Positions 3,512 to 18,203 of a stretch of 18,203 bases of DNA are shown piece after piece. The DNA is taken from the IMG/VR virus record IMGVR_UViG_3300045988_036188. One strand, written 5' to 3'. The DNA comes from a virus. The position numbers and the translations under genes were made by a program. The stretch's first letter is position 1. Every line of letters begins with the position of its first letter. The notes beneath the pieces were generated by a model. The model had not been told where the DNA came from. It saw only the letters and a program-made list of their open reading frames with translations, and ran no database searches.

Positions 3512-5224
3512 ATGGAGTACGCCGCAGACTTCGAGACAACCACAGATATAAATGATTGTCGCGTTTGGGCGTGGTGCGTGTGCGAGATTGACAACCCCGA
3601 CGCACTAAGCTATGGCACGGACATTGCCACGTTTCTTGATTTCTGCAAGGTTCACGGCGGTACATATTATTTCCACAATGCTGCATTCGATTGTGAGTTC
3701 ATTATATGGTACCTGCTGACCAACGGATTTGAGTACAGCGAAAAGGCGAGGACAAAGACTTTCAAAACGCTCATATCAAACATGGGCAAGTTCTATCAGA
3801 TGAAGGTTTGCTTTGAGAAGAAGGGCAAGAATAAAGCGCTAACCTGCACATTCAAAGACAGCTTGAAGAAACTCCCCATGAAGGTATCGCAGATTGCAAA
3901 GGCTTTCGACCTCCCCATATCCAAGTTGGAGATTGACTATACGGAGTACCGCCCCGTAGGTCACGAGTTGACAGCGCAGGAACGAGACTACATCAGGAAC
4001 GACGTTCAGATCGTCGCTAGGGCGCTGCATCAGCAGTTCGGCAAGGGGCTTGACAGGCTCACCATCGGAAGCGACGCGCTCAACGGGTACAAGGACATAA
4101 TAGGCTCGAAGTGGGATGACTGGTTCCCTAAGATTCATCTGGAAATGGACGCGATGATACGCAAGGCGTATCGCGGCGGCTACACATACGCGAACCCTAG
4201 GTTTCAGGCTGACGAGGAACACGAGTACAGGCTGCAGGGCTACGGGGCTGCGTTTGACGTTAACTCGTTGTACCCCGACGTTATGTACAACAGACCGTTG
4301 CCAATCGGGCAGCCGATATATTTCCACGGAGAGTACAAGTACAACCCCCAATATCCCCTGTACATTCAATTCCTAACCTGCCATTGCAAGTTGAAGCCCG
4401 ACCACCTCCCCACGTTGCAGATTAAGAACAACCCGTTCTACTCCGAAACGGAGTACATCCATGACACGGAGGGAACAGTTGAGTTGGCTTTGACCAACAT
4501 AGACTTGGAAATACTCATGCAGCAGTACGACGTGACGGTGTTTTCGTACAACGGCGGGTACATGTTCGAGCAAGCCACTGGACTGTTCAAAGATTACATA
4601 GACTATTGGATGCACATTAAAGAAACTACCACGGGCGGTTTGCGACAGCTTGCGAAGCTCATGTTGAATTCACTTTATGGCAAGTTCGCCACGAACCCCG
4701 ACGTTACGCCGAAACTGCCTTACTTGAAAGAGGACGGTTCAGTTGGGTACAGATTGGGAGAGAAAGAGACGCGCGACCCCGTGTACACGCCTATGGGTTG
4801 CTTCATTACCGCATGGGCTAGGTACAAGACCATCAATGCAGCGCAAAGCGTATACGATAGGTTCATGTATTGTGACACGGACAGCATACACATTTGCGGC
4901 ACAGACATTCCCGAGGGTTTGGAGGTGCATCCTACACGTTTGGGCGCGTGGAAGCATGAGAGCAATTTCAGCATGGCTAAATATATCAGGGCTAAGACGT
5001 ACATGGAGAGAATCTATCAGGTTGGCAAGATGGTTGATGGCGAATACAGGATGGTTGACGTTCAGCCGTTCGATGACGTTAAGTGCGCTGGTATGCCAGA
5101 GGAGTTGAAGCGCATGGTGACGTTCGACAGTTTCAAGAGGGGCTTGCAGCTTCACGGGAAGTTGAAGCCAAGGCACGTTAGGGGCGGTATAGTGCTCGAA
5201 CCCATAACGTTCACGCTCACCTGA
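3512..5224 (+). CDS. Family B DNA polymerase, protein-primed (phi29-like) type, 570 aa
   Basis: Exo I DFETTTD, Exo II YFHNAAFDCEF, Exo III YIRNDVQIV, motif A DVNSLYPDVMY, motif B KLMLNSLYGKF, motif C YCDTDS and KxY (KYIRAKTYME) are all present. Length of about 570 aa and the adjacent terminal protein gene fit the protein-primed type. Confidence 0.95.
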   Translation: MEYAADFETTTDINDCRVWAWCVCEIDNPDALSYGTDIATFLDFCKVHGGTYYFHNAAFDCEFIIWYLLTNGFEYSEKARTKTFKTLISNMGKFYQMKVCFEKKGKNKALTCTFKDSLKKLPMKVSQIAKAFDLPISKLEIDYTEYRPVGHELTAQERDYIRNDVQIVARALHQQFGKGLDRLTIGSDALNGYKDIIGSKWDDWFPKIHLEMDAMIRKAYRGGYTYANPRFQADEEHEYRLQGYGAAFDVNSLYPDVMYNRPLPIGQPIYFHGEYKYNPQYPLYIQFLTCHCKLKPDHLPTLQIKNNPFYSETEYIHDTEGTVELALTNIDLEILMQQYDVTVFSYNGGYMFEQATGLFKDYIDYWMHIKETTTGGLRQLAKLMLNSLYGKFATNPDVTPKLPYLKEDGSVGYRLGEKETRDPVYTPMGCFITAWARYKTINAAQSVYDRFMYCDTDSIHICGTDIPEGLEVHPTRLGAWKHESNFSMAKYIRAKTYMERIYQVGKMVDGEYRMVDVQPFDDVKCAGMPEELKRMVTFDSFKRGLQLHGKLKPRHVRGGIVLEPITFTLT

Positions 5225-5619: not shown

Positions 5620-5973
5620 ATGAACCTAGAGGATTTGCTCGCTTGTCTCCGTGAGAGGATGGAGGATGGCGAGTACGCGACCGCAGAGACGTTCCTCACG
5701 GACATGGCTAAGCGGGGAGCGGATGCCGACGAGTACCGAAGTTCTGCGGAAGCCCGCATGAGCGAGTATGCGTCGAACGAGGAAGCCATGAAGGCTGACA
5801 TTCAGAGTTTGAAGGCTCGCAACTATGACCTGCTGATGCAGATTCCCGCCGACAACAGCGGGGACAACGACGGTGACGGTGTTGTCGTTGAGGACGTGGA
5901 CGAGGACGGCACCGTGTACCACATCGACAACCTTTTCACCGATGACAAGGAGGACAGCAACAATGGCAACTAA
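5620..5973 (+). CDS. Putative scaffolding protein (117 aa), acidic with predicted coiled coil
   Basis: SD reads ttGGAAGGAGaagaacATG. Acidic composition (EDGE..., DNDGDGVVVEDVDEDG). It lies immediately upstream of and overlaps the major capsid gene, as scaffold gp7 does in phi29. Confidence 0.55.
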   Translation: MNLEDLLACLRERMEDGEYATAETFLTDMAKRGADADEYRSSAEARMSEYASNEEAMKADIQSLKARNYDLLMQIPADNSGDNDGDGVVVEDVDEDGTVYHIDNLFTDDKEDSNNGN

Positions 5974-7408
5974 GACTATCAAGACGCTGAACGCGACGAA
6001 CGCGCAGATTTTGAACGCGATTCGCACCGATGCTTCGTTCGCGTACCAGCAGCGCATTCCTGCTGCGACGCAGGGTGACATTACCGAGACGGTGAACAAC
6101 CTGCTCGAATACCGCCCGATGATGAACGAGTTCATCGACGCGCTTGTGAACCGCATCGGAGACGTTGTAATCAAGAGCAAGGTTTGGACTAACCCGCTCG
6201 CGCAGTTCAAGCGCGGTATGATGCAGTACGGCGAGACCATCGAGGAACTTGCCACCACGCTGATCCAGGCTAAGCGCTACGACCCGAACAAGTGCTATGA
6301 TGACGTGTTCGCTTGCCACGCGCCCGACGTTATGAGCAACTTTCACAGCATCAACCGTCAGGACTACTACGAGTTGACCGTCAACGACATGCTTCTGCGC
6401 CGTGCGTTTTTGAACGACTACGGGCTGCAAGACCTCGTGGGGCGCATCATGGAAACGCCGTACACGTCCGACTACTGGGACGAGTACCTTATCATGCGAA
6501 ACCTTTTCGCAGAGTACGCGCGAATCGACGGCTTCTACAAGGTGAACGTTCCCGATGCTTCGGCTGCGTCCACCCGTGCGGAGAAGCAGGACGATGCTAT
6601 GGCGATTACGGAAGCCGTGCGCTCGATGGCTGGCAAGATGCGCTTTCTTTCTGGACAGTACAACGCCGCAGGCGCGCCGACGTTCACGAACAACAACGAC
6701 CTTGTTCTGTTCGCAACTCCCGAGTTCGTGGCTATGCTCGACGTTAACGTTATCGCGTTCGCGTTCAACGCATCCGCAGCCGACTTCAAGATGCGCGTTA
6801 TCGAGATTGACGATTTCGGCATCGACGGTTGCCAAGCCATTCTGTGCGACCGCGATTTCTTCATGTGCGCGGACACGCTTATCGACTTCGAGAGCATCCG
6901 CAATCCCAAGGCGATTTCGTGGAACTACTGGCTGCATCACCACGGCATCTATTCCGTGTCCCGTTTCGTGAACGCAGTCATGTTCACCACGGAAGCTGGC
7001 ACCAGCGTGACTGTTCCCGCCATTAAGGCAACTGGTGTTACGCTTGATTATGCGGAGGTTGACGGAGTGAAACCCACTTACGCAGAGCGCGGTGGAAAGA
7101 CGCGCCTTATCGCCACTGTTCAGGGCACCGTAACGCCCGAGACGGAGGGGTACACGGTTCCGCAGGGCTGCACGTTCGCAATCACCGCGAACAACACGGG
7201 TGTTGAGAGCGGCGGCGTTCGGTTGAAGCTGGGCACGTTCGTGGATGCCGAGGGCGTGCTGCACGTAGCCGAGGATGAAGTTGCGGAGAACGTGACTGTT
7301 ACCGCGACCAGCACCTATATCGACCCGACGGTTGCCATGGGCGAGCAGGTGTACCAGCACAAGGATTTGATTATCGGCATTGACAAGGCGTACACGTCCG
7401 CAGGCTAA
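5963..7408 (+). CDS. Major capsid protein (481 aa) with C-terminal bacterial Ig-like (BIG2-type) domain
   Basis: SD reads acAAGGAGGacagcaacaATG. The N-terminal region (…NAIRTD…VNRIGDVVIKSKVWTNPLAQFKRGMMQYGETIEEL…) resembles the phi29 gp8 major head protein as I recall it. The C-terminal beta-rich segment TVPAIKATGVTLDYAEV…VTVTATSTY looks Ig-like. Confidence 0.8.
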   Translation: MATKTIKTLNATNAQILNAIRTDASFAYQQRIPAATQGDITETVNNLLEYRPMMNEFIDALVNRIGDVVIKSKVWTNPLAQFKRGMMQYGETIEELATTLIQAKRYDPNKCYDDVFACHAPDVMSNFHSINRQDYYELTVNDMLLRRAFLNDYGLQDLVGRIMETPYTSDYWDEYLIMRNLFAEYARIDGFYKVNVPDASAASTRAEKQDDAMAITEAVRSMAGKMRFLSGQYNAAGAPTFTNNNDLVLFATPEFVAMLDVNVIAFAFNASAADFKMRVIEIDDFGIDGCQAILCDRDFFMCADTLIDFESIRNPKAISWNYWLHHHGIYSVSRFVNAVMFTTEAGTSVTVPAIKATGVTLDYAEVDGVKPTYAERGGKTRLIATVQGTVTPETEGYTVPQGCTFAITANNTGVESGGVRLKLGTFVDAEGVLHVAEDEVAENVTVTATSTYIDPTVAMGEQVYQHKDLIIGIDKAYTSAG

Positions 7409-7418
7409 GGAGTAAGTC

Positions 7419-9596
7419 ATGGCACAAGATTTCCCTGGGTTGCCAGAGAACATCTATGAGTACGAGAATAGGTTTAACTATTCGGTATGGACACCGAACA
7501 CGTCTATTCTCATGTGCAACGTGCCGTGGGATTCTTCGTACCGTGACGTGGTGCGCTTTGATTCCGACAAGGAGCGGGACGCTTATTTCGCGTCCCGCTC
7601 CGTTGACGGGTATGCGTTCACGCTGAACGGGCTTGTATATCTTCGATACGGCGAGCCTATCCGCGTGAACGCGCCCTTTGACATGGTTACACGTTGCAAC
7701 TACATGGTTGTGAAGAACCCGCTGCAACCCGTACCTCCGTCTGGCGGCAGACAGCCAGACGTTTTCTACTACTTCGTGAACGACGCGAAGTACATAGCGC
7801 CGAACACCACGCAGGTGAATGTGCAGCTTGACGTGTGGATGACATACTACGACAGAATCAGCTTCGACCTTTGCTACGTGAACAAGGGTCACATCGGAAT
7901 CGCCAACGAGAACAGCACCATCTACAACCTTTCGGAGTACATGACAGATGCGGAGGGTTTGAACATAGGTGACGAGTACGAGATTACAGACCTCGCAATC
8001 GACAACTTTCTCAATGAACCGCCGTACATCGTTATCATGTGCACCGCTGATTTAACTGCTGGGTTCGGCAGCGTGTCAAACCCGACGCTCAAAACGGCTA
8101 CTGGTTCCATCAACGACGGTATGCCGTCTGGTTCGGCGGTGTACGCTTGCAACAGCGTGAACTTCTTGGAGTTGATGAAGAAGATGCAAGATGCGCCGTG
8201 GGTTTCGCAGTGCATCAGCATGGTCACGGTGGTTCCTGCACGTTTCGTTCAGAACGCCACGGAAACGACCGTTGCGGGAGTCCCTATGTTTCGTATGCCA
8301 GAAACACCGGCCGAGAACATCTCATCGTTGCACCTGATGCACGTTATGGACATGTTCCATATTCCCGAGCGGTACAAGAACCTTTTGAAGTTCTACACGT
8401 CACCGTACTGCGTTATCGAAATGACGGCGTACAACGGCGGCGAGATTGTGCTGAAGCCCGAATGCTTGCAGATTAACTCGTACCAAGGTCAGGACAGCAT
8501 CTTGCTTGTCACGGAGACGGTTGTGGCACCGCCCGACATTCGAGGCTATTCGTATGTGGAGGGGTACAACACAGCCAACGGGGTTGGCGGCAGAGTTGAT
8601 GCTGACTACTATCTTCCTAGCGGCGAATCGTTCCCGCATTCGGAGTCCAACCAAGAGGGTTTGGACATAGCCATTCAGTTCAGCAACTTTCCGCAGTTCT
8701 CGCTTGTGAACAATCAGTACATATATTATATGGCATCGAACCGAAACAGGCTTGCGTACCAGTTCGCCGCAGCAGATTGGTCACAGCAGAAATCGCTTAC
8801 GGCAGCGCAGCTTTCGTTCAACCAGAGCGGGGCGAACATGCAGAACGCATGGGCGAACCAGCAGGTAGCCAATCAGGCGAACTGGGCATTGAGCGGAATA
8901 TCGCAGGAGAAGAACCTGTGGAACGGCGCTTCGTCCATGATTTCGTCTGGCGTTGGCGCTGTTGGCAGCCTTGCATCTGGCAACTTCGGCGGTGCCGCCG
9001 CGGACGTTGCCAACATGGCGCTCGCTGGTGCGAACACCGCGCTGAACGCCGACTGGATTAACAGGACTACCGCGACGCAGGTCGGCGCGGCTACCGCGAC
9101 CACGCAGAACAACATCGGCTTGCAGGGGTATATGAGGGACACGAACTATGACTATGCCGTGTACGCCGCGAACGGGGACTACGAGACGGCTATTCAGGGC
9201 ATTCAGGCAAAGGTTCAGGATGCGCGGCTCACGCAGCCGTCCACTTCGGGACAGAACGGCGGCGATGCGTTCAACTTCTGCAAGGGGTACATGGGCGTGC
9301 GGTTGAAGTTCAAGAGGTTGAAGCTGAACTTCCTGCGTCAGGTTGGCGATTTCTGGCTGCGCTACGGCTACTACGTGAACCGTTGGATTGTGCCGCCCGC
9401 CGACTTGAAGTGCATGGAGAACTTCACGTATTGGAAGATGCAGAGCGTTTCGCTTTCGACAAGCGAGGTTCCCGAACTGTTCAAGGAGAGCATCAGGGGC
9501 ATTTTTGAAAAGGGCGTGACAGTTTGGAGCGACCCTGATAAAATGTACAAGATTGACCTAGCCGACAACGAGCCTGTGAAGGGGGTGCGTTACTGA
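7419..9596 (+). CDS. Tail knob / distal tail tube protein (phi29 gp9-like), 725 aa
   Basis: SD reads ctAAGGAGtaagtcATG. The N-terminal region (…ILMCNVPWDSSYRDVVRFDS…) and C-terminal region (…YGYYVNRW…FTYWKMQ…IRGIFEKGVTVWSD) follow the pattern of phi29 gp9. There is an internal Gly/Ala-rich hydrophobic loop (GASSMISSGVGAVGSLASGNFGGAAADVANMALAGA) like the gp9 membrane-penetrating loop. Confidence 0.8.
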   Translation: MAQDFPGLPENIYEYENRFNYSVWTPNTSILMCNVPWDSSYRDVVRFDSDKERDAYFASRSVDGYAFTLNGLVYLRYGEPIRVNAPFDMVTRCNYMVVKNPLQPVPPSGGRQPDVFYYFVNDAKYIAPNTTQVNVQLDVWMTYYDRISFDLCYVNKGHIGIANENSTIYNLSEYMTDAEGLNIGDEYEITDLAIDNFLNEPPYIVIMCTADLTAGFGSVSNPTLKTATGSINDGMPSGSAVYACNSVNFLELMKKMQDAPWVSQCISMVTVVPARFVQNATETTVAGVPMFRMPETPAENISSLHLMHVMDMFHIPERYKNLLKFYTSPYCVIEMTAYNGGEIVLKPECLQINSYQGQDSILLVTETVVAPPDIRGYSYVEGYNTANGVGGRVDADYYLPSGESFPHSESNQEGLDIAIQFSNFPQFSLVNNQYIYYMASNRNRLAYQFAAADWSQQKSLTAAQLSFNQSGANMQNAWANQQVANQANWALSGISQEKNLWNGASSMISSGVGAVGSLASGNFGGAAADVANMALAGANTALNADWINRTTATQVGAATATTQNNIGLQGYMRDTNYDYAVYAANGDYETAIQGIQAKVQDARLTQPSTSGQNGGDAFNFCKGYMGVRLKFKRLKLNFLRQVGDFWLRYGYYVNRWIVPPADLKCMENFTYWKMQSVSLSTSEVPELFKESIRGIFEKGVTVWSDPDKMYKIDLADNEPVKGVRY

Positions 9597-10495
9597 TGGG
9601 AAGGAATCGCAAGGGCAAGCGCAACACGTGGCAGTCTGCTGAAATGAATAACTTGCAGTACCGCATGTACTATGAAATGTTGGAGCAGATGGCTTGCGCG
9701 ATATACCGTTGGGAGGGATTGCCGACGGAGATTGACCAGCGCTTTCTCGAACTGACACTTTTCAATCGCGGAATGAGCGTGTTTTTCTGGGATGACGAGT
9801 ACGATGCTTATTTCTCCACTATGGGCGCACCGTCTGGGCAGATTAACATGTACCAGAATCCGCTTGCGTATATCGCATACGGCACTAACGGCTTTCATCG
9901 TCGGTTGAAGTCTACCGAATGTGTACCCATCTGGAACAACTATCTGCGCAGACCAGACATTAACGCAATGCGAATCTACGCGCGTAGGCTTGCGGACATT
10001 GACAGAACCGTGGACGTGAACCTTATGAGCCAGAAGATGCCGATATTCGCGGTTGTCCCTGAATCGCAGCGGTTGACCATTCAGAACCTTATGAAGCAGT
10101 ATGTGGGCAACGAGCCTATCATCGTGGGCGCTGACGGAATGTTCGACCCGTCGCAGATTACCTACCTTAGTTCTGGTGCGCCGTTCATCACGCCCGAACT
10201 GCTCAAAGCAAAGCAGACGGTTTGGGCAGAGATTATGACGTACTTCGGCATCGAGAACACGAACATCAGCAAAGCGGAGCGAGTTCAGAGCGCCGAGGTC
10301 GAAGCGAACAACGGTCAGATTGAAGCGAACCGCCTTATTCGCCTGAATTGCAGACGCGAAGCGTGCAGGCAGATTAACCGCAAGTACGGGCTTGAGGTTT
10401 GGTGCGACATGAACAAGGACGTTTCTAGCCAGAACATGAACGTGCTTCTCATGGCTGACCCCGAGGTTCAGACGGATGGAGGTGCTGGGTTATGA
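9596..10495 (+). CDS. Head-tail connector (portal) protein, phi29 gp10-like, 299 aa
   Basis: Start overlaps the upstream stop (TGATG). Shows gp10-like segments: …MACAIYRWEGLPTEIDQRFLE…, …EIMTYFGIENTNISKAERVQSAEVEANNGQIEAN…REEACRQINRKYGLEV. The size matches. Confidence 0.85.
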   Translation: MGRNRKGKRNTWQSAEMNNLQYRMYYEMLEQMACAIYRWEGLPTEIDQRFLELTLFNRGMSVFFWDDEYDAYFSTMGAPSGQINMYQNPLAYIAYGTNGFHRRLKSTECVPIWNNYLRRPDINAMRIYARRLADIDRTVDVNLMSQKMPIFAVVPESQRLTIQNLMKQYVGNEPIIVGADGMFDPSQITYLSSGAPFITPELLKAKQTVWAEIMTYFGIENTNISKAERVQSAEVEANNGQIEANRLIRLNCRREACRQINRKYGLEVWCDMNKDVSSQNMNVLLMADPEVQTDGGAGL

Positions 10496-11244
10496 GTTTG
10501 TACGAGGACGGAGAGTGCGGCGTTCCCTATCATCGTGGGGCGATCTTCACGGTGGAGTTGGGTTCGCTTGTCGAAAACGGATTCGATTTGGGGCTTGACA
10601 AATACCCCATTTTCGATGAAGAATACCGTGCGCCGCTGAACGCGAAGATTGTTGAGCATTTCTTCTTTCGAGAGATTGGGCAGGAGACTCCCGCGCTTTT
10701 CAGGCGTTTTCTGAACCGCAAGATGAACGAGATTATGCCGTTCTACAATCAACTGTACAAGAGCGCGTTGCAGGATTTCGACCCGTTCAGCAACTATGAC
10801 ATGCGCACGGAGGGAAGCACGAGCGGAACGTCTGACCAGTCTAGGGACTATTCGCGTACCGAGAACACGGCTACCAAGGCAACGAGCGAGACGGTGAACG
10901 ACACCGACAGCACGGCGCGAACCGTGGTAAGCACGACACCGCAGATGCAGCTTTCCGGGAACGAGGACTACGCGACCAACCTCACTGACAGCACGAGCAA
11001 CACGATTGCGAAGGGAACGAGTGCGCAGGACAGCAATGCGGAAAGCGAAGCAAGCGACACCACGAAGGCGAGTTCAAAGACGTTGGAGGATTACGTCACG
11101 CACGTGAGCGGCATATCGGGTATCACCAAGGCACAAGCCCTCATGCAGTTCCGTGAGACGTTCCTGAACATCGACATGATGGTTATAGGCGATTTGAACG
11201 AGCTTTTCATGGGTATATACACTGATTATTGGAATGCGCTTTAG
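10492..11244 (+). CDS. Lower collar protein candidate (phi29 gp11 position), 250 aa
   Basis: ATGA overlap with the connector stop. SD reads ggatGGAGGTGctgggttATG. It follows the connector as gp11 does in phi29. The Ser/Thr-rich central segment is typical of collar/tube proteins. The call rests on synteny. Confidence 0.5.
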   Translation: MSLYEDGECGVPYHRGAIFTVELGSLVENGFDLGLDKYPIFDEEYRAPLNAKIVEHFFFREIGQETPALFRRFLNRKMNEIMPFYNQLYKSALQDFDPFSNYDMRTEGSTSGTSDQSRDYSRTENTATKATSETVNDTDSTARTVVSTTPQMQLSGNEDYATNLTDSTSNTIAKGTSAQDSNAESEASDTTKASSKTLEDYVTHVSGISGITKAQALMQFRETFLNIDMMVIGDLNELFMGIYTDYWNAL

Positions 11245-11257
11245 GGAGGTGAAATTT

Positions 11258-11860
11258 ATGGGAATCTACTATCCGTTTCTTGGCGGCGGGCGAACGTGCA
11301 ACCAGATTACAACCCCGCTAGTGTACGACGAATCGCTATCCGTGGAGCAGCAGATCGCTTGTCTGTTCGGCAAGATTGCCAACATCGACAGCGATTTTGT
11401 GACTACGGTTGAGTTCGATGACTTCAAGAGCCAGATTCATGCGGAGCAGGTAGCGCAGACTGAACAGCTTGAAGGGTACACGGATTCGGAGATTGCCAAG
11501 CTGGACAAGGAGTTGCGCGACCTGATTGCAGGTTCGCAGGTTGGCTTGCTTATCTGGAACGTCACGGTTGGCAGGTACACGGGCAACGTTAAAGCAATGC
11601 GTGACTTCTTCAACGATGTTACAGTGCATGCAATCACCGTTGATGCTCTTGCGCAGCTTGACATGACTGTTGACCAGCTTGCGGAATGCGGCTTGAATGT
11701 TCGTGGATTGGCCGTTTTCAGCGGGTACCTCATGAGGGACGATTTCGTGCCAGAGGGCATCACATACGACGGCGCACCGCCGCTCGATGGAAAACTGACC
11801 TGCTCGATTCTCGCTAACGGTGAGGTGCGGGACGGGTACTTCGTAGAAGGGAGTGAATGA
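11258..11860 (+). CDS. Structural protein of unknown role (200 aa)
   Basis: SD reads ttaGGGAGGTGaaatttATG. It lies between the collar and fibre genes. No motif recognised. Confidence 0.55.
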   Translation: MGIYYPFLGGGRTCNQITTPLVYDESLSVEQQIACLFGKIANIDSDFVTTVEFDDFKSQIHAEQVAQTEQLEGYTDSEIAKLDKELRDLIAGSQVGLLIWNVTVGRYTGNVKAMRDFFNDVTVHAITVDALAQLDMTVDQLAECGLNVRGLAVFSGYLMRDDFVPEGITYDGAPPLDGKLTCSILANGEVRDGYFVEGSE

Positions 11861-11864
11861 TGGC
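11841..11864 (+). repeat. 24-bp perfect direct repeat of a translation-initiation region (tcgtagaagggagtgaatgatggc); second copy at 12211..12234
   Basis: Both copies contain the SD GAAGGGAG and an ATGATG start, one for each of the two paralogous fibre genes. Confidence 0.85.
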
Positions 11865-12216
11865 AGGAACGCCAACGACTAACTACCAGTTGCCGACTTA
11901 CGCCGACACGGACGCGCCAGATCTCACGGGCGCGTACAATCAGGCGATGGAGAAAATCGACACGCAGATGAAAACCAATTCCGACGAAGCGGCATCCGCA
12001 ACGTCGGCGGCAGGTACGGCTAAGTCCACCGCAGACAGCGCGTTGGAAACGGCTAACGCGAACGAAGCGGCAATCACCGCGCTCACGGGCAGGGTGGCCA
12101 GTTTGGAAGGCGGTTCGTTTAAGCCGCAAGATACCGACGCAACTCTGACTGTGCAGCAGTTGTCGGAAGCAAAAGTGACCAAAGCTGGCATTGTGTACTT
12201 CAAGCCCGCATCGTAG
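11857..12216 (+). CDS. Short fibre/appendage paralog (119 aa); its N-terminal anchor region is homologous to the 12227..13219 product
   Basis: The N-terminus reads MMAGTPTTNYQLPTYADTDAPDLTGAYNQAMEKIDTQMK, against MMATEYTPNYNLDLYASADKPNLRDQYNAAMGKIDTQMK in the next gene. Both share the LTGRV..EG motif. The start may be the second ATG (11860). Confidence 0.55.
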   Translation: MMAGTPTTNYQLPTYADTDAPDLTGAYNQAMEKIDTQMKTNSDEAASATSAAGTAKSTADSALETANANEAAITALTGRVASLEGGSFKPQDTDATLTVQQLSEAKVTKAGIVYFKPAS

Positions 12217-12226
12217 AAGGGAGTGA

Positions 12227-13219
12227 ATGATGGCTACGGAATACACGCCGAACTACAATCTTGACCTGTACGCTTCGGCTGACAAGCCTAACCTGCGCGA
12301 CCAGTACAACGCCGCTATGGGCAAGATTGACACGCAGATGAAGAAGAGCGCGGATGACGTTACCAACGCCAACGCCAACGTTCTCACGCTGCAAACGCAG
12401 ATGACCGAAGCGCAGAAGGACATTTCGGCGCTGGAATCCACTGTGGAGACGCACGGGACGCAAATCACGGACGTTCAAAAGACGGCTGACGATGCGCTTT
12501 CCCTCGCAAAGACCAACGAGAGCGACATTGCGGACACGCAAGCCGACGTTACGTCGCTCACTGGTCGCGTGACCGCGGTTGAGGGTGCCGCGAAGAAGAA
12601 CGAGACGGGTATTGCTTCGCTTGACACCCGCATGGACGCGGCAGAGGGCGATATCACGGAAGCGCAGAACGACATTAACGGATTGCAGACTGCCGTGAAC
12701 GGGAAAGCACCGATCAACCACGCAAGCACCGACAACACCTATGGTCAGGGTTCGTCTACGAACTTCGGGCATTTGAAGGTGGCAGACAGCGGAAGCGCGG
12801 CGGCATCGTCTGGCACGGCGGCTTCGCCGAAAATGGTTGCTGACCAGATTTCAGCATTAAAGGCACTTCTGGCACCTCAGGCGCTGGAAGCTGCGCACAC
12901 TGTCAATTACAATGGCGGTATCACAGGAAGCGGCATCTTCTCAATCTACGCCAACTCGATTACCGACATTGTTTCTGTTATGCTGAAAAACAACTCGCTG
13001 TCCACACCTGGCACAGGTGGGTACAAAACCGCAACGTTGGGCACCATCCCCAGCGGATACCGCCCGACACGCCTTCTTACGTTCACCGCTTTCTCTGGTA
13101 ATGCGTATTTGCAGATTGAATCAAACGGAGCGGTTAAATTGTCGTTTGCAGACGATGTAGCCCATACGGCAGGTGCGGAAAACGGTTGTGGCTGTATGTT
13201 CTTCGGCAACAGTAGGTGA
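12227..13219 (+). CDS. Tail fibre / receptor-binding protein candidate (330 aa): N-terminal anchor, Ala/Thr-rich coiled-coil stalk, C-terminal globular domain
   Basis: Paralogous N-terminus as described above. The central heptad-like repeats (TEAQKDISALESTVETHGTQITDVQKTADDALSLAKTNESDIADTQADVTSLTGRVTAVEGAAKKNETGIASLDTRMDAAEGDITEAQNDINGLQTAVNGK) are followed by a Gly/Ser-rich distal domain. Confidence 0.6.
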   Translation: MMATEYTPNYNLDLYASADKPNLRDQYNAAMGKIDTQMKKSADDVTNANANVLTLQTQMTEAQKDISALESTVETHGTQITDVQKTADDALSLAKTNESDIADTQADVTSLTGRVTAVEGAAKKNETGIASLDTRMDAAEGDITEAQNDINGLQTAVNGKAPINHASTDNTYGQGSSTNFGHLKVADSGSAAASSGTAASPKMVADQISALKALLAPQALEAAHTVNYNGGITGSGIFSIYANSITDIVSVMLKNNSLSTPGTGGYKTATLGTIPSGYRPTRLLTFTAFSGNAYLQIESNGAVKLSFADDVAHTAGAENGCGCMFFGNSR

Positions 13220-13225
13220 TGAACC

Positions 13226-14497
13226 ATGCCAAGTACCAGAACCATTTGCTATTACGCAATGTACGTTATCGGCGAGGTCGAATCCAACTGGAACTGGACA
13301 GCCGTGAACTACAACGACCCTATCACGATAGGGATGATGCAGTGGTATGGTACACGGGCTGCTGCGCTTCTCAACCGCATCAAAAACGAAATGCCAACTG
13401 CCTACGGGCAGTTGGCTGCTTCGTTGCGTTCGGACATTGAATCGCATGATGCCGGTAGTACGTGGTGGACTAGGCGTTACCTGAACAGGGACGAGGGAAA
13501 CAGCATCATAACTGTTTTCCAAGACGAGGAAAACCATGTGATTCAGGAGAATCAGGCTATAGCCGATTTCGAGGGGTACATTGCGACGCTTGAAGGCTGG
13601 GGAATGAGTCAGTCGTACCCGAAACCTTTGATATTCGCAATGAGCATGTACCATCAATCACCAGCAAGTGCGGGGCAGGTCATTGCAACGGCGGGCGGCA
13701 GCGCCGACCTCGATAGGATATACGGCGTTTGCATGAACCACGGGGTTCTTGGGCAGTACAGGAATCGCTACAACACCGTGTACCAGAGATTGAAGGATTG
13801 GGACGGTGAGAGCAACCCGCCTGATTTCGGTCAGAGCGGAGACGTTGACACAACGCCCGGGGGCAACACCCCTGGGATTAGCACAGAAAAAAGCAAGTTG
13901 GGGTACATCATTCAGAATGGAGATACGCTCATTCTTTACGGCAAAGACGAGTACGAAAAAGGCGTTATATTCTATCCCGCATCTGGACAGGTTTGGATTA
14001 ACGGGTACAACGCGAACGGAACTGACATTGGCGGCGGCAACGAGGGCGGCGGTTCGGAGAGCGGAAGCGAAGCGCAGAACGCCATATGCGAATTGTACCG
14101 CTCATGGCTTGACAGGTTCGCGTACTCGCAGGGTGCTGGACGGCTTGACCCCATAAGCAGCGGATATGGTGACTGTTCTTCTACGGTGTGGTTCGCGTAC
14201 CAGCAGGTTGCTGGAATCGACGTTGGCACGTGGACGGGCGCTATGGCGGGCAAGGGGACGAAGATAGCAAGCGGCTATTCTGGTGACAACCTACCCATCG
14301 AGGATATGGAGCCAGCCGATTTGGTGCTGATTATGTGGAATGGTTGGAACGGCTCATTTGACCACGTTGAACTGTACATGGGCAACAATGAACTTTGGGG
14401 ACATGGTGGACCCGATTACGGACCAGACCAAACCACAACCGATGCTAGGAACTATCCACGGTACATGTATTATTGGGAGGTGAGACGGTACCTATGA
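13226..14497 (+). CDS. Tail-associated peptidoglycan hydrolase (423 aa): N-terminal glycosidase-like region, Gly-rich linker, C-terminal NlpC/P60- or CHAP-like cysteine peptidase
   Basis: Its position matches phi29 gp13. The C-terminal region (…DPISSGYGDCSSTVWFAYQQVAG…FDHVELYMGNNELWGHGG) has the Cys…His…His spacing of NlpC/P60/CHAP enzymes. The linker reads GGGNEGGGSESGSE. Confidence 0.6.
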   Translation: MPSTRTICYYAMYVIGEVESNWNWTAVNYNDPITIGMMQWYGTRAAALLNRIKNEMPTAYGQLAASLRSDIESHDAGSTWWTRRYLNRDEGNSIITVFQDEENHVIQENQAIADFEGYIATLEGWGMSQSYPKPLIFAMSMYHQSPASAGQVIATAGGSADLDRIYGVCMNHGVLGQYRNRYNTVYQRLKDWDGESNPPDFGQSGDVDTTPGGNTPGISTEKSKLGYIIQNGDTLILYGKDEYEKGVIFYPASGQVWINGYNANGTDIGGGNEGGGSESGSEAQNAICELYRSWLDRFAYSQGAGRLDPISSGYGDCSSTVWFAYQQVAGIDVGTWTGAMAGKGTKIASGYSGDNLPIEDMEPADLVLIMWNGWNGSFDHVELYMGNNELWGHGGPDYGPDQTTTDARNYPRYMYYWEVRRYL

Positions 14498-17748: not shown

Positions 17749-17816
17749 ATGGGGTGCGTGCGGTACGAGTCCATGAAGCTCAACAACTGGTTTCGGGATA
17801 TTGTTAGGATGGGATT

Positions 17817-18065
17817 ATGATCATCACGACTAAGAATGGCGACATGGTAGATACAGTGCAGATTATCGAAGAAAACGTATATACCATAGATGATGTTAAA
17901 TACGCGGTGGAAACTGACATGTATATTGCTGCAACGGTTCAGATACGAATTTGCGATACTGGAAAGAAACAGCTGGAAGTATCAGACCCGGAAGTTGGAA
18001 AAGAAGCTCAGTACCATCTTCGACAGTTCATCAAGTACATGAAACAGTTGGGGAGGTATTACTGA
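17817..18065 (+). CDS. Hypothetical protein (82 aa), last gene before the right ITR
   Basis: SD reads gttAGGATGGGattATG. No motif recognised. Confidence 0.55.
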   Translation: MIITTKNGDMVDTVQIIEENVYTIDDVKYAVETDMYIAATVQIRICDTGKKQLEVSDPEVGKEAQYHLRQFIKYMKQLGRYY

Positions 18066-18132
18066 TGGCTGAGCCGGTTATAATCAGCGCTAGTCGCCGT
18101 CTACGGCGATAATGTTGTACTTTGTTCCCTCC

Positions 18133-18203
18133 GTTCCTCATGTACTCCCTAGCCCGTACAAGACTGCGGCGCTGGGGAGGTACATGGGAAACGGGGGGAC
18201 AGG
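18133..18203. repeat. Right inverted terminal repeat (71 bp)
   Basis: Exact reverse complement of 1..71. Confidence 0.9.

Follow-up and report, generated by a model that had tools for sequence, protein, structure and literature searches.

The subject of this analysis is a group of three consecutive genes, here called U, A and B, in the IMG/VR virus record IMGVR_UViG_3300045988_036188, an 18,203-nt stretch of DNA that was analysed as a whole (the window). The window is the complete linear genome of a phi29-like podovirus, bounded by perfect 71-nt inverted terminal repeats (1-71 and 18133-18203). This type is the smallest among tailed phages and serves as a model of tail architecture, and its appendage is normally one protein. 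The genes are arranged in the order tail knob, connector, lower collar, U, A, B, gp13-like lysin and gp16 ATPase (Table 1), with U, A and B occupying the slot (from the lower collar to the gp13-type tail lysin) that holds the gp12 appendage gene in phi29 and the fibre genes gp17 and gp15 in P68 and Andhra, respectively. The three genes are tightly packed, and a scan revealed no plus-strand promoter-like or terminator-like site between them.

Table 1. Features of the appendage locus and its neighbours in the window (residue numbers refer to the encoded protein; aa, amino acids; ORF, open reading frame).
Feature	Position	Strand	Residues	Remarks
gp9-type tail knob	7419-9596			
gp10 connector	9596-10495			
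Lower collar gene	10492-11244	+		attachment site for appendages; phrog_3225 and phrog_5472 (lower collar/adaptor)
Gene U	11258-11860	+	200 aa from ATG 11258	longer ORF from 11234
U internal unit	11660-11719	+		DMTVDQLAECGLNVRGLAVF; best-conserved stretch of U in both layouts; invariant G, L, G, A columns
U tail unit (C-terminal extension)	11763-11857	+		GAPPLDGKLTCSILANGEVRDGYFVEGSE; confined to relatives that have gene A
Junction cassette, copy 1	11841-11864	+		end of U, Shine-Dalgarno GGGAG, ATGATGGC opening A
Gene A	11857-12216	+	119 aa	
A anchor	11857-11982		1-42	
A coiled coil	11983-12111		43-85	Ala/Ser/Thr, variable length
A linker and tail unit	12112-12213		86-119	motif F.P..D..LTV..L..AKVT..GIVYFK
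Junction cassette, copy 2	12211-12234	+		last codon and TAG stop of A, Shine-Dalgarno, ATGATGGC opening B
Gene B	12227-13219	+	330 aa	
B anchor	12227-12352		1-42	DKPNLRDQYN invariant, present in every B anchor
B coiled-coil stalk	12353-12721		43-165	
B conserved fibre motif	12722-12856		166-210	NHAS..YGQGSSTNFGHLKV.DSG...AS.GTAASP
B hypervariable head	12857-13216		211-330	
gp13-like tail lysin	13226-14497	+		downstream limit of appendage locus; Pfam NlpC/P60 and phrog_1015 (tail protein with lysin activity)
gp16 packaging ATPase	14473-15519			

Gene junctions and the make-up of gene A

A first-pass annotation had drawn attention to an identical 24-bp sequence at the start of both A and B and to an N-terminal anchor common to the two proteins (NY.L..YA..D.P.L...YN.AM.KIDTQMK and LTGRV..EG), and both observations hold. 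The sequence in question, TCGTAGAAGGGAGTGAATGATGGC, occurs exactly at the two gene junctions and nowhere else in the window; with up to 3 mismatches tolerated there was no match in 200 dinucleotide-preserving shuffles and no further match in the window itself. The first copy of this junction cassette codes for the final residues of U (..YFVEGSE) and its TGA stop, U and A overlapping by ATGA. A repeat search showed that the DNA repeats hold a single 370-nt register over the cassette and the whole anchor, and the coding DNA directly 3' of the cassettes is ~65-77% identical between the two copies. In metagenome contigs of the same lineage as the window the cassettes are 24/24 identical in 9 of 17 cases and differ by one base in the others, while in distant lineages the two junctions have the Shine-Dalgarno alone in common. 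At the protein level, pairwise BLASTP aligns A with B at E=5e-16 (34% identity over 146 columns, with a single 36-residue gap in the coiled coil); the first ~43 residues are ~58% identical, and the quoted motifs are aligned.

The C-terminus of A was originally taken for an unrelated small domain, a view superseded by the similarity of this region to the tail unit of U. The comparison (by hhalign) of the A-tail and U-tail family profiles gave a probability of 94% and E=1e-7, and the two proteins of the window end in a matching C-terminal unit (..DGKLTCSILANGEVRDGYFVEGSE in U and ..DATLTVQQLSEAKVTKAGIVYFKPAS in A, each followed directly by the stop codon), with intermediate tail forms in other lineages (..FSVFKLNTAKVDADTGTVYIPEEFRA, ..LDATKLNVAKVRDDGTVFIPEEFRS and ..NAMLTTQQLNVAKVDTNGNVYIPEKFRF). 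A hidden Markov model (HMM) of the A tail also matched U-like C-termini, namely those of the relative L047 (independent E-value 8.5e-4) and of a fragment in L019 (2.5e-7). This link is significant only with diverse family profiles: between single sequences of A tail and U the Smith-Waterman shuffle test gave p=0.09-0.32, and hhalign on shallow alignments E=0.029. A weak match was also obtained between the A-tail profile and the internal unit of U, TV..LA.CGLNVRGLAV (hhalign E=1.6e-4, probability 50%).

Since its anchor and coil resemble those of B and its tail that of U, gene A is a chimera, in which a B-type anchor and coil are fused to a U-type tail unit. It arose by a tandem duplication across the U/B junction, the duplicated unit comprising the U tail, the stop/Shine-Dalgarno/start cassette and the anchor and coil; a duplication spanning that junction also accounts for the presence of a cassette at either end of A. 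The first-pass annotation missed this unit because U lay outside the stretch it covered.

Judging from the anchors, this duplication is ancient. The mean identity between lineages is 67% among B anchors and 46% among A anchors, and A-type and B-type anchors form separate conserved groups across phages of 44-63% GC. A and B anchors are as alike within one genome (mean identity 42%) as across genomes (41%), and this, together with the separate lineages, points to an old event. The 24/24 identity of the cassettes therefore cannot be a neutral leftover. The cassette itself is an old junction element (end of U, Shine-Dalgarno, start of the next gene), because the U/B junction of L028, a relative that lacks A, still resembles it (GAGAGTGTATAATGGCTAC, 16/19 positions). 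The identity of the two copies is that of a conserved junction that is still recombining and no relic of the original duplication. The earlier proposal of a duplication that carried along a translation-initiation cassette is thus retained insofar as the duplication took in the gene junction, and is revised as to the meaning of the identical cassettes and the age of the event, which was not recent.

Conservation and parts of the three proteins

Eleven relatives among viral contigs carry U, A, B and the lysin in the same order with every ORF intact (B identity from 98% down to 55%), and A is intact in a further 20 metagenome contigs that bear the U-A junction. The ratio of nonsynonymous to synonymous substitution rates (dN/dS, Nei-Gojobori over eleven genomes) is 0.09 for U, 0.16 for A as a whole (anchor 0.06, coil 0.29, tail region 0.24) and 0.31 for B as a whole (anchor 0.07, head 0.55). 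Gene A is under purifying selection and functional. In these relatives the anchor of A and its C-terminal LTV.QLSEAKVTKAGIVYFK are nearly invariant, and the coil between them varies, giving proteins of 91-127 aa.

When 1.8 billion representative proteins were searched exhaustively with A, 549 of them matched at E<=1e-3. Among them about 50 short homologues (77-170 aa, counted as clusters at 50% identity) keep the anchor, coil and tail plan, and A of the window aligns over its full length (query 2-117) to many representatives of this size at 35-68% identity. The family pattern, which A shares, consists of the anchor ..TTNY.LP.Y...D.PDL...YN.AM..ID, a low-complexity coil that ranges from 0 to about 90 residues, and the C-terminal D..LTV..L..AKVT..GIVY. 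Some homologues of 250-400 aa combine the A-type anchor and the A-type tail with a globular middle, and many of 200-500 aa have the anchor alone in common with A. No curated family covers A: searches against Pfam-A and PHROGs gave sub-threshold matches only (E about 0.004-0.008), and tblastn with A against the phage collection gave no match.

These data bear on the possibility, also raised in the first-pass annotation, that A is a recent duplicate of B with its initiation cassette and by now a truncated decoy or a decaying copy. We consider this very improbable. The identical cassettes, the 370-nt register and the common anchor would all be accounted for; however, the coding DNA that follows the cassettes is only about 65-77% identical, the A and B anchors fall into separate groups, and the tail of A derives from U rather than B. 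Moreover, A is intact in all relatives at a dN/dS that speaks for constraint, the about 50 diverged clusters keep both of its ends, and no variant with a long U was found to lack A.

The AlphaFold2 (AF2) model of A, built on a 41-sequence alignment, has a predicted local distance difference test score (pLDDT) of 91 and shows an extended segment (1-22), a helix (23-87), a loop, a second helix (99-104) and a beta-hairpin, the C-terminal helix and hairpin standing at pLDDT about 90 in the monomer. A Foldseek search of the PDB with this model found nothing at E<=0.001, and the anchor and A, searched as profiles against the PDB, showed only a chance coiled-coil resemblance to coronavirus spike heptad repeats.

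As for B, the coiled-coil stalk and the distal head that had been proposed for it from its sequence are borne out, the stalk being of trimeric type and the head variable. A PDB profile search with the stalk matched the coiled coils of P22 gp26, fibritin and reovirus sigma-1. The likeness to the trimeric coiled-coil repeats of the P22 tail needle gp26 (E=7.9e-9) is limited to heptad-type repeats of the form ..TSLTGRVTAVEG..; the N-terminal domain, virion location and function of gp26 differ. Residues 1-205 of B are conserved, and the last ~125 residues are of at least four unrelated types among close relatives and are replaced by an SGNH hydrolase in more distant ones. Because it is hypervariable and swapped between close relatives, the head is likely the receptor binder. 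Residues 179-204, invariant in relatives, resemble by eye what we take to be a generic phage tail-fibre motif (G..K..DS......AASP..V), and no Pfam fibre-repeat model matched B at E<=0.01. The matches of B in Pfam and PHROGs are of coiled-coil type only and under the Pfam cut-offs, leaving B, too, outside any curated family, and tblastn with B against the phage collection returned only coiled-coil matches and one unannotated gut contig.

An SGNH/GDSL hydrolase domain was located in the B-position fibres of three relatives (L017:492-1868, L074:4992-6224 and L015:9927-11300, the last being the Eggerthella phage LE1-1). Its presence suggests that in some relatives these fibres may de-acetylate or cleave a surface polysaccharide receptor. 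The hydrolase of LE1-1 is without the anchor, and this phage has a U-like gp13 without the tail.

Protein U is composed of a putative gp12-like attachment motif at the N-terminus, a coiled coil, a small helical domain and the C-terminal tail unit. The hhalign comparison of the U family with the N-terminus of phi29 gp12 gave E=6.7e-4 at a probability of only 27%, pairing TPLVYDESLSVEQQIACLFGKI with LPTAFDESLTLLEKMNKIIHYL, and a PDB profile search with U returned the pre-neck appendage 6qz9 at E=0.026. In phi29 the N-terminal arm of gp12 (about residues 20-115) fastens the appendage to the collar (PMC6542822). The likeness to gp12 is weak and confined to U and to the arm; A and B are without similarity to gp12, neither the beta-helix tailspike nor the autochaperone of gp12 has a Pfam, PHROG or PDB match in U, A or B, and the assembly as a whole is not a member of the gp12 family. 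The start of U is ambiguous (ATG 11234, GTG 11249 or ATG 11258); a GGGAGG Shine-Dalgarno precedes 11258, the database homologues are of 200 aa, and the start region AGGGAGGTGAA is similar to the A/B cassette AGGGAGTGAA. In the 62% GC relative L078 (3392-4117) the core of U is followed by three successive tail-like units, and the 330-aa protein in the A position combines fibre repeats with an A-type anchor and a tail.

Gene layouts and the proposed fibre

A survey of 61 loci with HMMs for the anchors and the tail, all of them on 10-20-kb podovirus contigs, distinguished two layouts. Where U is long, that is, carries the tail extension, a short tail-bearing A follows in 32 of 33 loci, the exception (L051) having a diverged 186-aa protein in the A position; where U is short and ends ~20 residues after CGLNVRGLAV, A is absent in 22 of 23 loci and B comes directly after U. 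The 56 loci do not count as independent, since they belong to roughly 11 lineages with long U and 9 with short U. The two layouts can be compared almost base by base between the window and L028, which are collinear at 84-85% identity save for window positions 11763-12220. This 458-nt block, corresponding to 13 nt in L028, consists of the U tail, the cassette and A, and the boundary of the indel in U falls at 11762/11763. A U-like base with one anchored fibre is also present in the cultured Clostridium phages CI461P1-3 (annotated as hypothetical only), and the low-GC gut contig MT835904 has a short and long paralogue pair of its own.

Comparison of copy number, which had been suggested by the first-pass annotation, showed 0, 1 or 2 copies of A across the relatives. 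The relative L087 (OPMR01000270.1) has three cassettes at 370-nt spacing (reverse strand, 7113, 7483 and 7853) and two identical A genes in the order U-A-A-B; in L074, of another lineage, a perfect 321-nt tandem duplication (4354-4995) spans the junction, with the end of the U tail on one side and most of A on the other; and L020 has two diverged tail-bearing short paralogues. On this comparative ground the cassettes appear to provide a substrate for unequal recombination that alters the copy number of A. The junction expected from deletion of A (long U, one cassette, B) was found in none of the surveyed loci and in 0 metagenome contigs, against 20 with the wild-type junction, which for a small sample agrees with selection keeping A.

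Overall, the neck appendage (tail fibre) of this phi29-like podovirus from the human gut is probably made up of U, A and B as its three subunits, and the most likely role of A is that of a structural adaptor or extension subunit. U would be the arm bound to the collar, and B the distal trimeric fibre, whose interchangeable head would bind or degrade the receptor. A would be a short structural adaptor or extension made of a B-type anchor, a freely variable coil and a helix-hairpin tail unit taken from U. The tail units are predicted to act as sockets and the anchors as plugs: the U tail would hold the A anchor, and the A tail (which is similar to the conserved core unit of U) would present a socket for the B anchor, so that A lengthens or branches the fibre. 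Through the identical cassettes the ribosome-binding site and start context of A are the same as those of B, which would favour matched synthesis. Hints as to docking came from crude distance-matrix correlations over 11 lineages, which are confounded by linkage: the U tail correlates with the A anchor at 0.45 (the best mutual match of these two), and the A tail with the B anchor at 0.51 and with the U core unit at 0.55.

A number of observations weigh against this model. The anchor of B is 96% identical between the window and L028, a layout-2 locus devoid of the A tail, and its best correlation (0.68) is with the core unit of U; these two observations fit equally well a B that is seated on the U core whether or not A is present, A then forming a side branch. 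The short-U exception among the surveyed loci, L070, has an A-like gene, the short paralogue of MT835904 has the anchor and lacks the tail, and the number of tail units follows no simple rule with respect to the number of anchors (L064, L056, L078). The A-A duplications are seen in assembled metagenomes and could be artefacts of assembly. The likeness of U to gp12 is weak, as its hhalign probability of 27% indicates, and the AF2 model of U built from database homologues (pLDDT 50) is too poor to use. We infer the trimeric state, the docking pairs and the location of U, A and B in the virion, and the plug-and-socket pairing in particular is drawn from gene order, co-occurrence and homology, on all of which linkage and shared ancestry act as confounders.

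Part of this evidence is equally relevant to another role of A, that of a separate fibritin-like trimeric whisker seated in the U tail beside B, in which the hairpin would be only a folding or trimerisation nucleus (compare the foldon of T4). Such a whisker would aid fibre assembly, hold the fibres retracted or sense the environment. This role is the main alternative and is possible, although we rate it as the less plausible one. The predicted plan of A is that of T4 fibritin (wac), with an N-terminal attachment, a variable coiled coil and a ~30-residue C-terminal unit ending in a beta-hairpin, and the long helix, small helix and hairpin of the AF2 model reproduce the fibritin layout of anchor, coiled coil and foldon. 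The free length of the coil is compatible with a whisker, and B, with its anchor almost unchanged where A is missing and co-varying best with the U core, may not need A. On the other hand, the tail unit is kept in A-position proteins with large globular middles (P0139-P0149, L078), for which no nucleator would be needed, and U bears it after a domain that is not coiled. The tail of A is also better conserved than that of U (47% versus 31% mean identity), suggesting a conserved partner. Finally, A has no sequence similarity to fibritin or the foldon, neither its profile nor its model matched fibritin in sequence or fold searches, and, unlike in fibritin, the hairpin of A follows a short helix and is common to the base protein U. 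It is only the coiled coil of B that weakly matches fibritin structures (1aa0/1avy, E about 0.01).

A location of A, or of both A and B, on the capsid or portal vertex as head fibres or decoration proteins appears improbable. Head fibres built as trimeric coiled coils are known in phi29-like phages (phi29 gp8.5, Andhra gp13), and B gave weak coiled-coil matches to PHROG families of the type 'minor head protein', but these are compositional matches. The genes sit between the lower collar and the tail lysin, immediately after the putative gp12-arm homologue U, which agrees with their initial description as fibre genes; A goes together with the U tail, and B has variable heads of receptor type and SGNH domains in relatives.

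Within the adaptor reading, a further and rather unlikely variant is that anchor and tail unit are self-compatible. A would in that case be a stackable spacer that joins trimeric segments head to tail, with its copy number and coil length reset at the cassette. If true, this would make A a genetic dial for the reach or branching of the fibre, for example against capsules of different thickness.

Compared with known systems, the appendage predicted here departs from that of phi29, where gp12 is one 854-aa chain, in being split over two or three polypeptides, and its distal part (a coiled-coil fibre with a small exchangeable head of ~120 aa) is unlike gp12. By analogy with phi29, in which twelve trimeric appendages hang from the collar, an equivalent arrangement may exist here. 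Docking of one subunit onto the N-terminus of the next is the principle of the T4 long tail fibre (gp34-37), TP901-1 BppU/BppL, G7C gp66/gp63.1 and the CBA120 tailspikes (TSPs), and in such multi-subunit or branched fibres it allows receptor-binding modules to be exchanged or added. Here, in contrast, the predicted docking module is a tail unit of ~25 residues and the plug an anchor of ~40 residues that runs into a coiled coil; A would carry a plug and a socket of its neighbours' families and vary in copy number, and homology to gp10-like or XD domains is absent.

Genome setting and biological meaning

The remainder of the window is in keeping with a phi29-like genome. A terminal protein, a DNA polymerase of the protein-primed type and the major head protein are all encoded, the genome being presumably protein-primed, and an amidase/CW_7 endolysin is present as well. 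Every recognised gene is on the plus strand, whereas the early genes of phi29 sit on the opposite strand. In the lysin of the gp13 position a weak phage-tail-lysozyme match is accompanied by an NlpC/P60 peptidase, where phi29 gp13 has M23 instead. The ORF of the major head protein (5873-7408, 511 aa from a putative GTG start) is covered by the PHROG head model in residues 36-376 only and has an extra C-terminal region of ~135 aa, possibly an Ig-like domain as in phi29 gp8. An Rfam scan of the window (including the phi29 pRNA family) was empty despite the gp16-type packaging ATPase, and one of the non-coding stretches may harbour a packaging RNA of diverged sequence; a tRNA scan of the window found none.

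Relatives of this genome were found in human-gut metagenomes. The sole close DNA match in the phage collection is a 342-nt segment (17749-18090) that is 95% identical to Eggerthella phage LE1-1 (Guelinviridae); it covers the end of the encapsidation gene of LE1-1 and two small hypothetical genes, the remainder of the window being without such a match. This segment points to a recent exchange and hints at an Eggerthellaceae host. Another Eggerthella phage, KL11, proved to be an unrelated 44-kb siphovirus.

We regard the U-A-B locus as coding for a split, modular appendage of the phi29 type with a duplicated adaptor of variable copy number, and not for a new kind of system. On this reading, a large and abundant group of human-gut podoviruses, to which cultured Clostridium phages and relatives of an Eggerthella phage belong, would build its appendage from exchangeable parts (a base, an adaptor that may be absent and a fibre whose heads can be swapped), using two short joining modules (anchor and tail unit) that are absent from curated families. 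For gut phages this provides a concrete and testable map from which host range could be predicted or re-engineered. The locus is also a clean natural example of a new structural gene formed by duplication across a gene junction, with the junction itself still a site of recombination.

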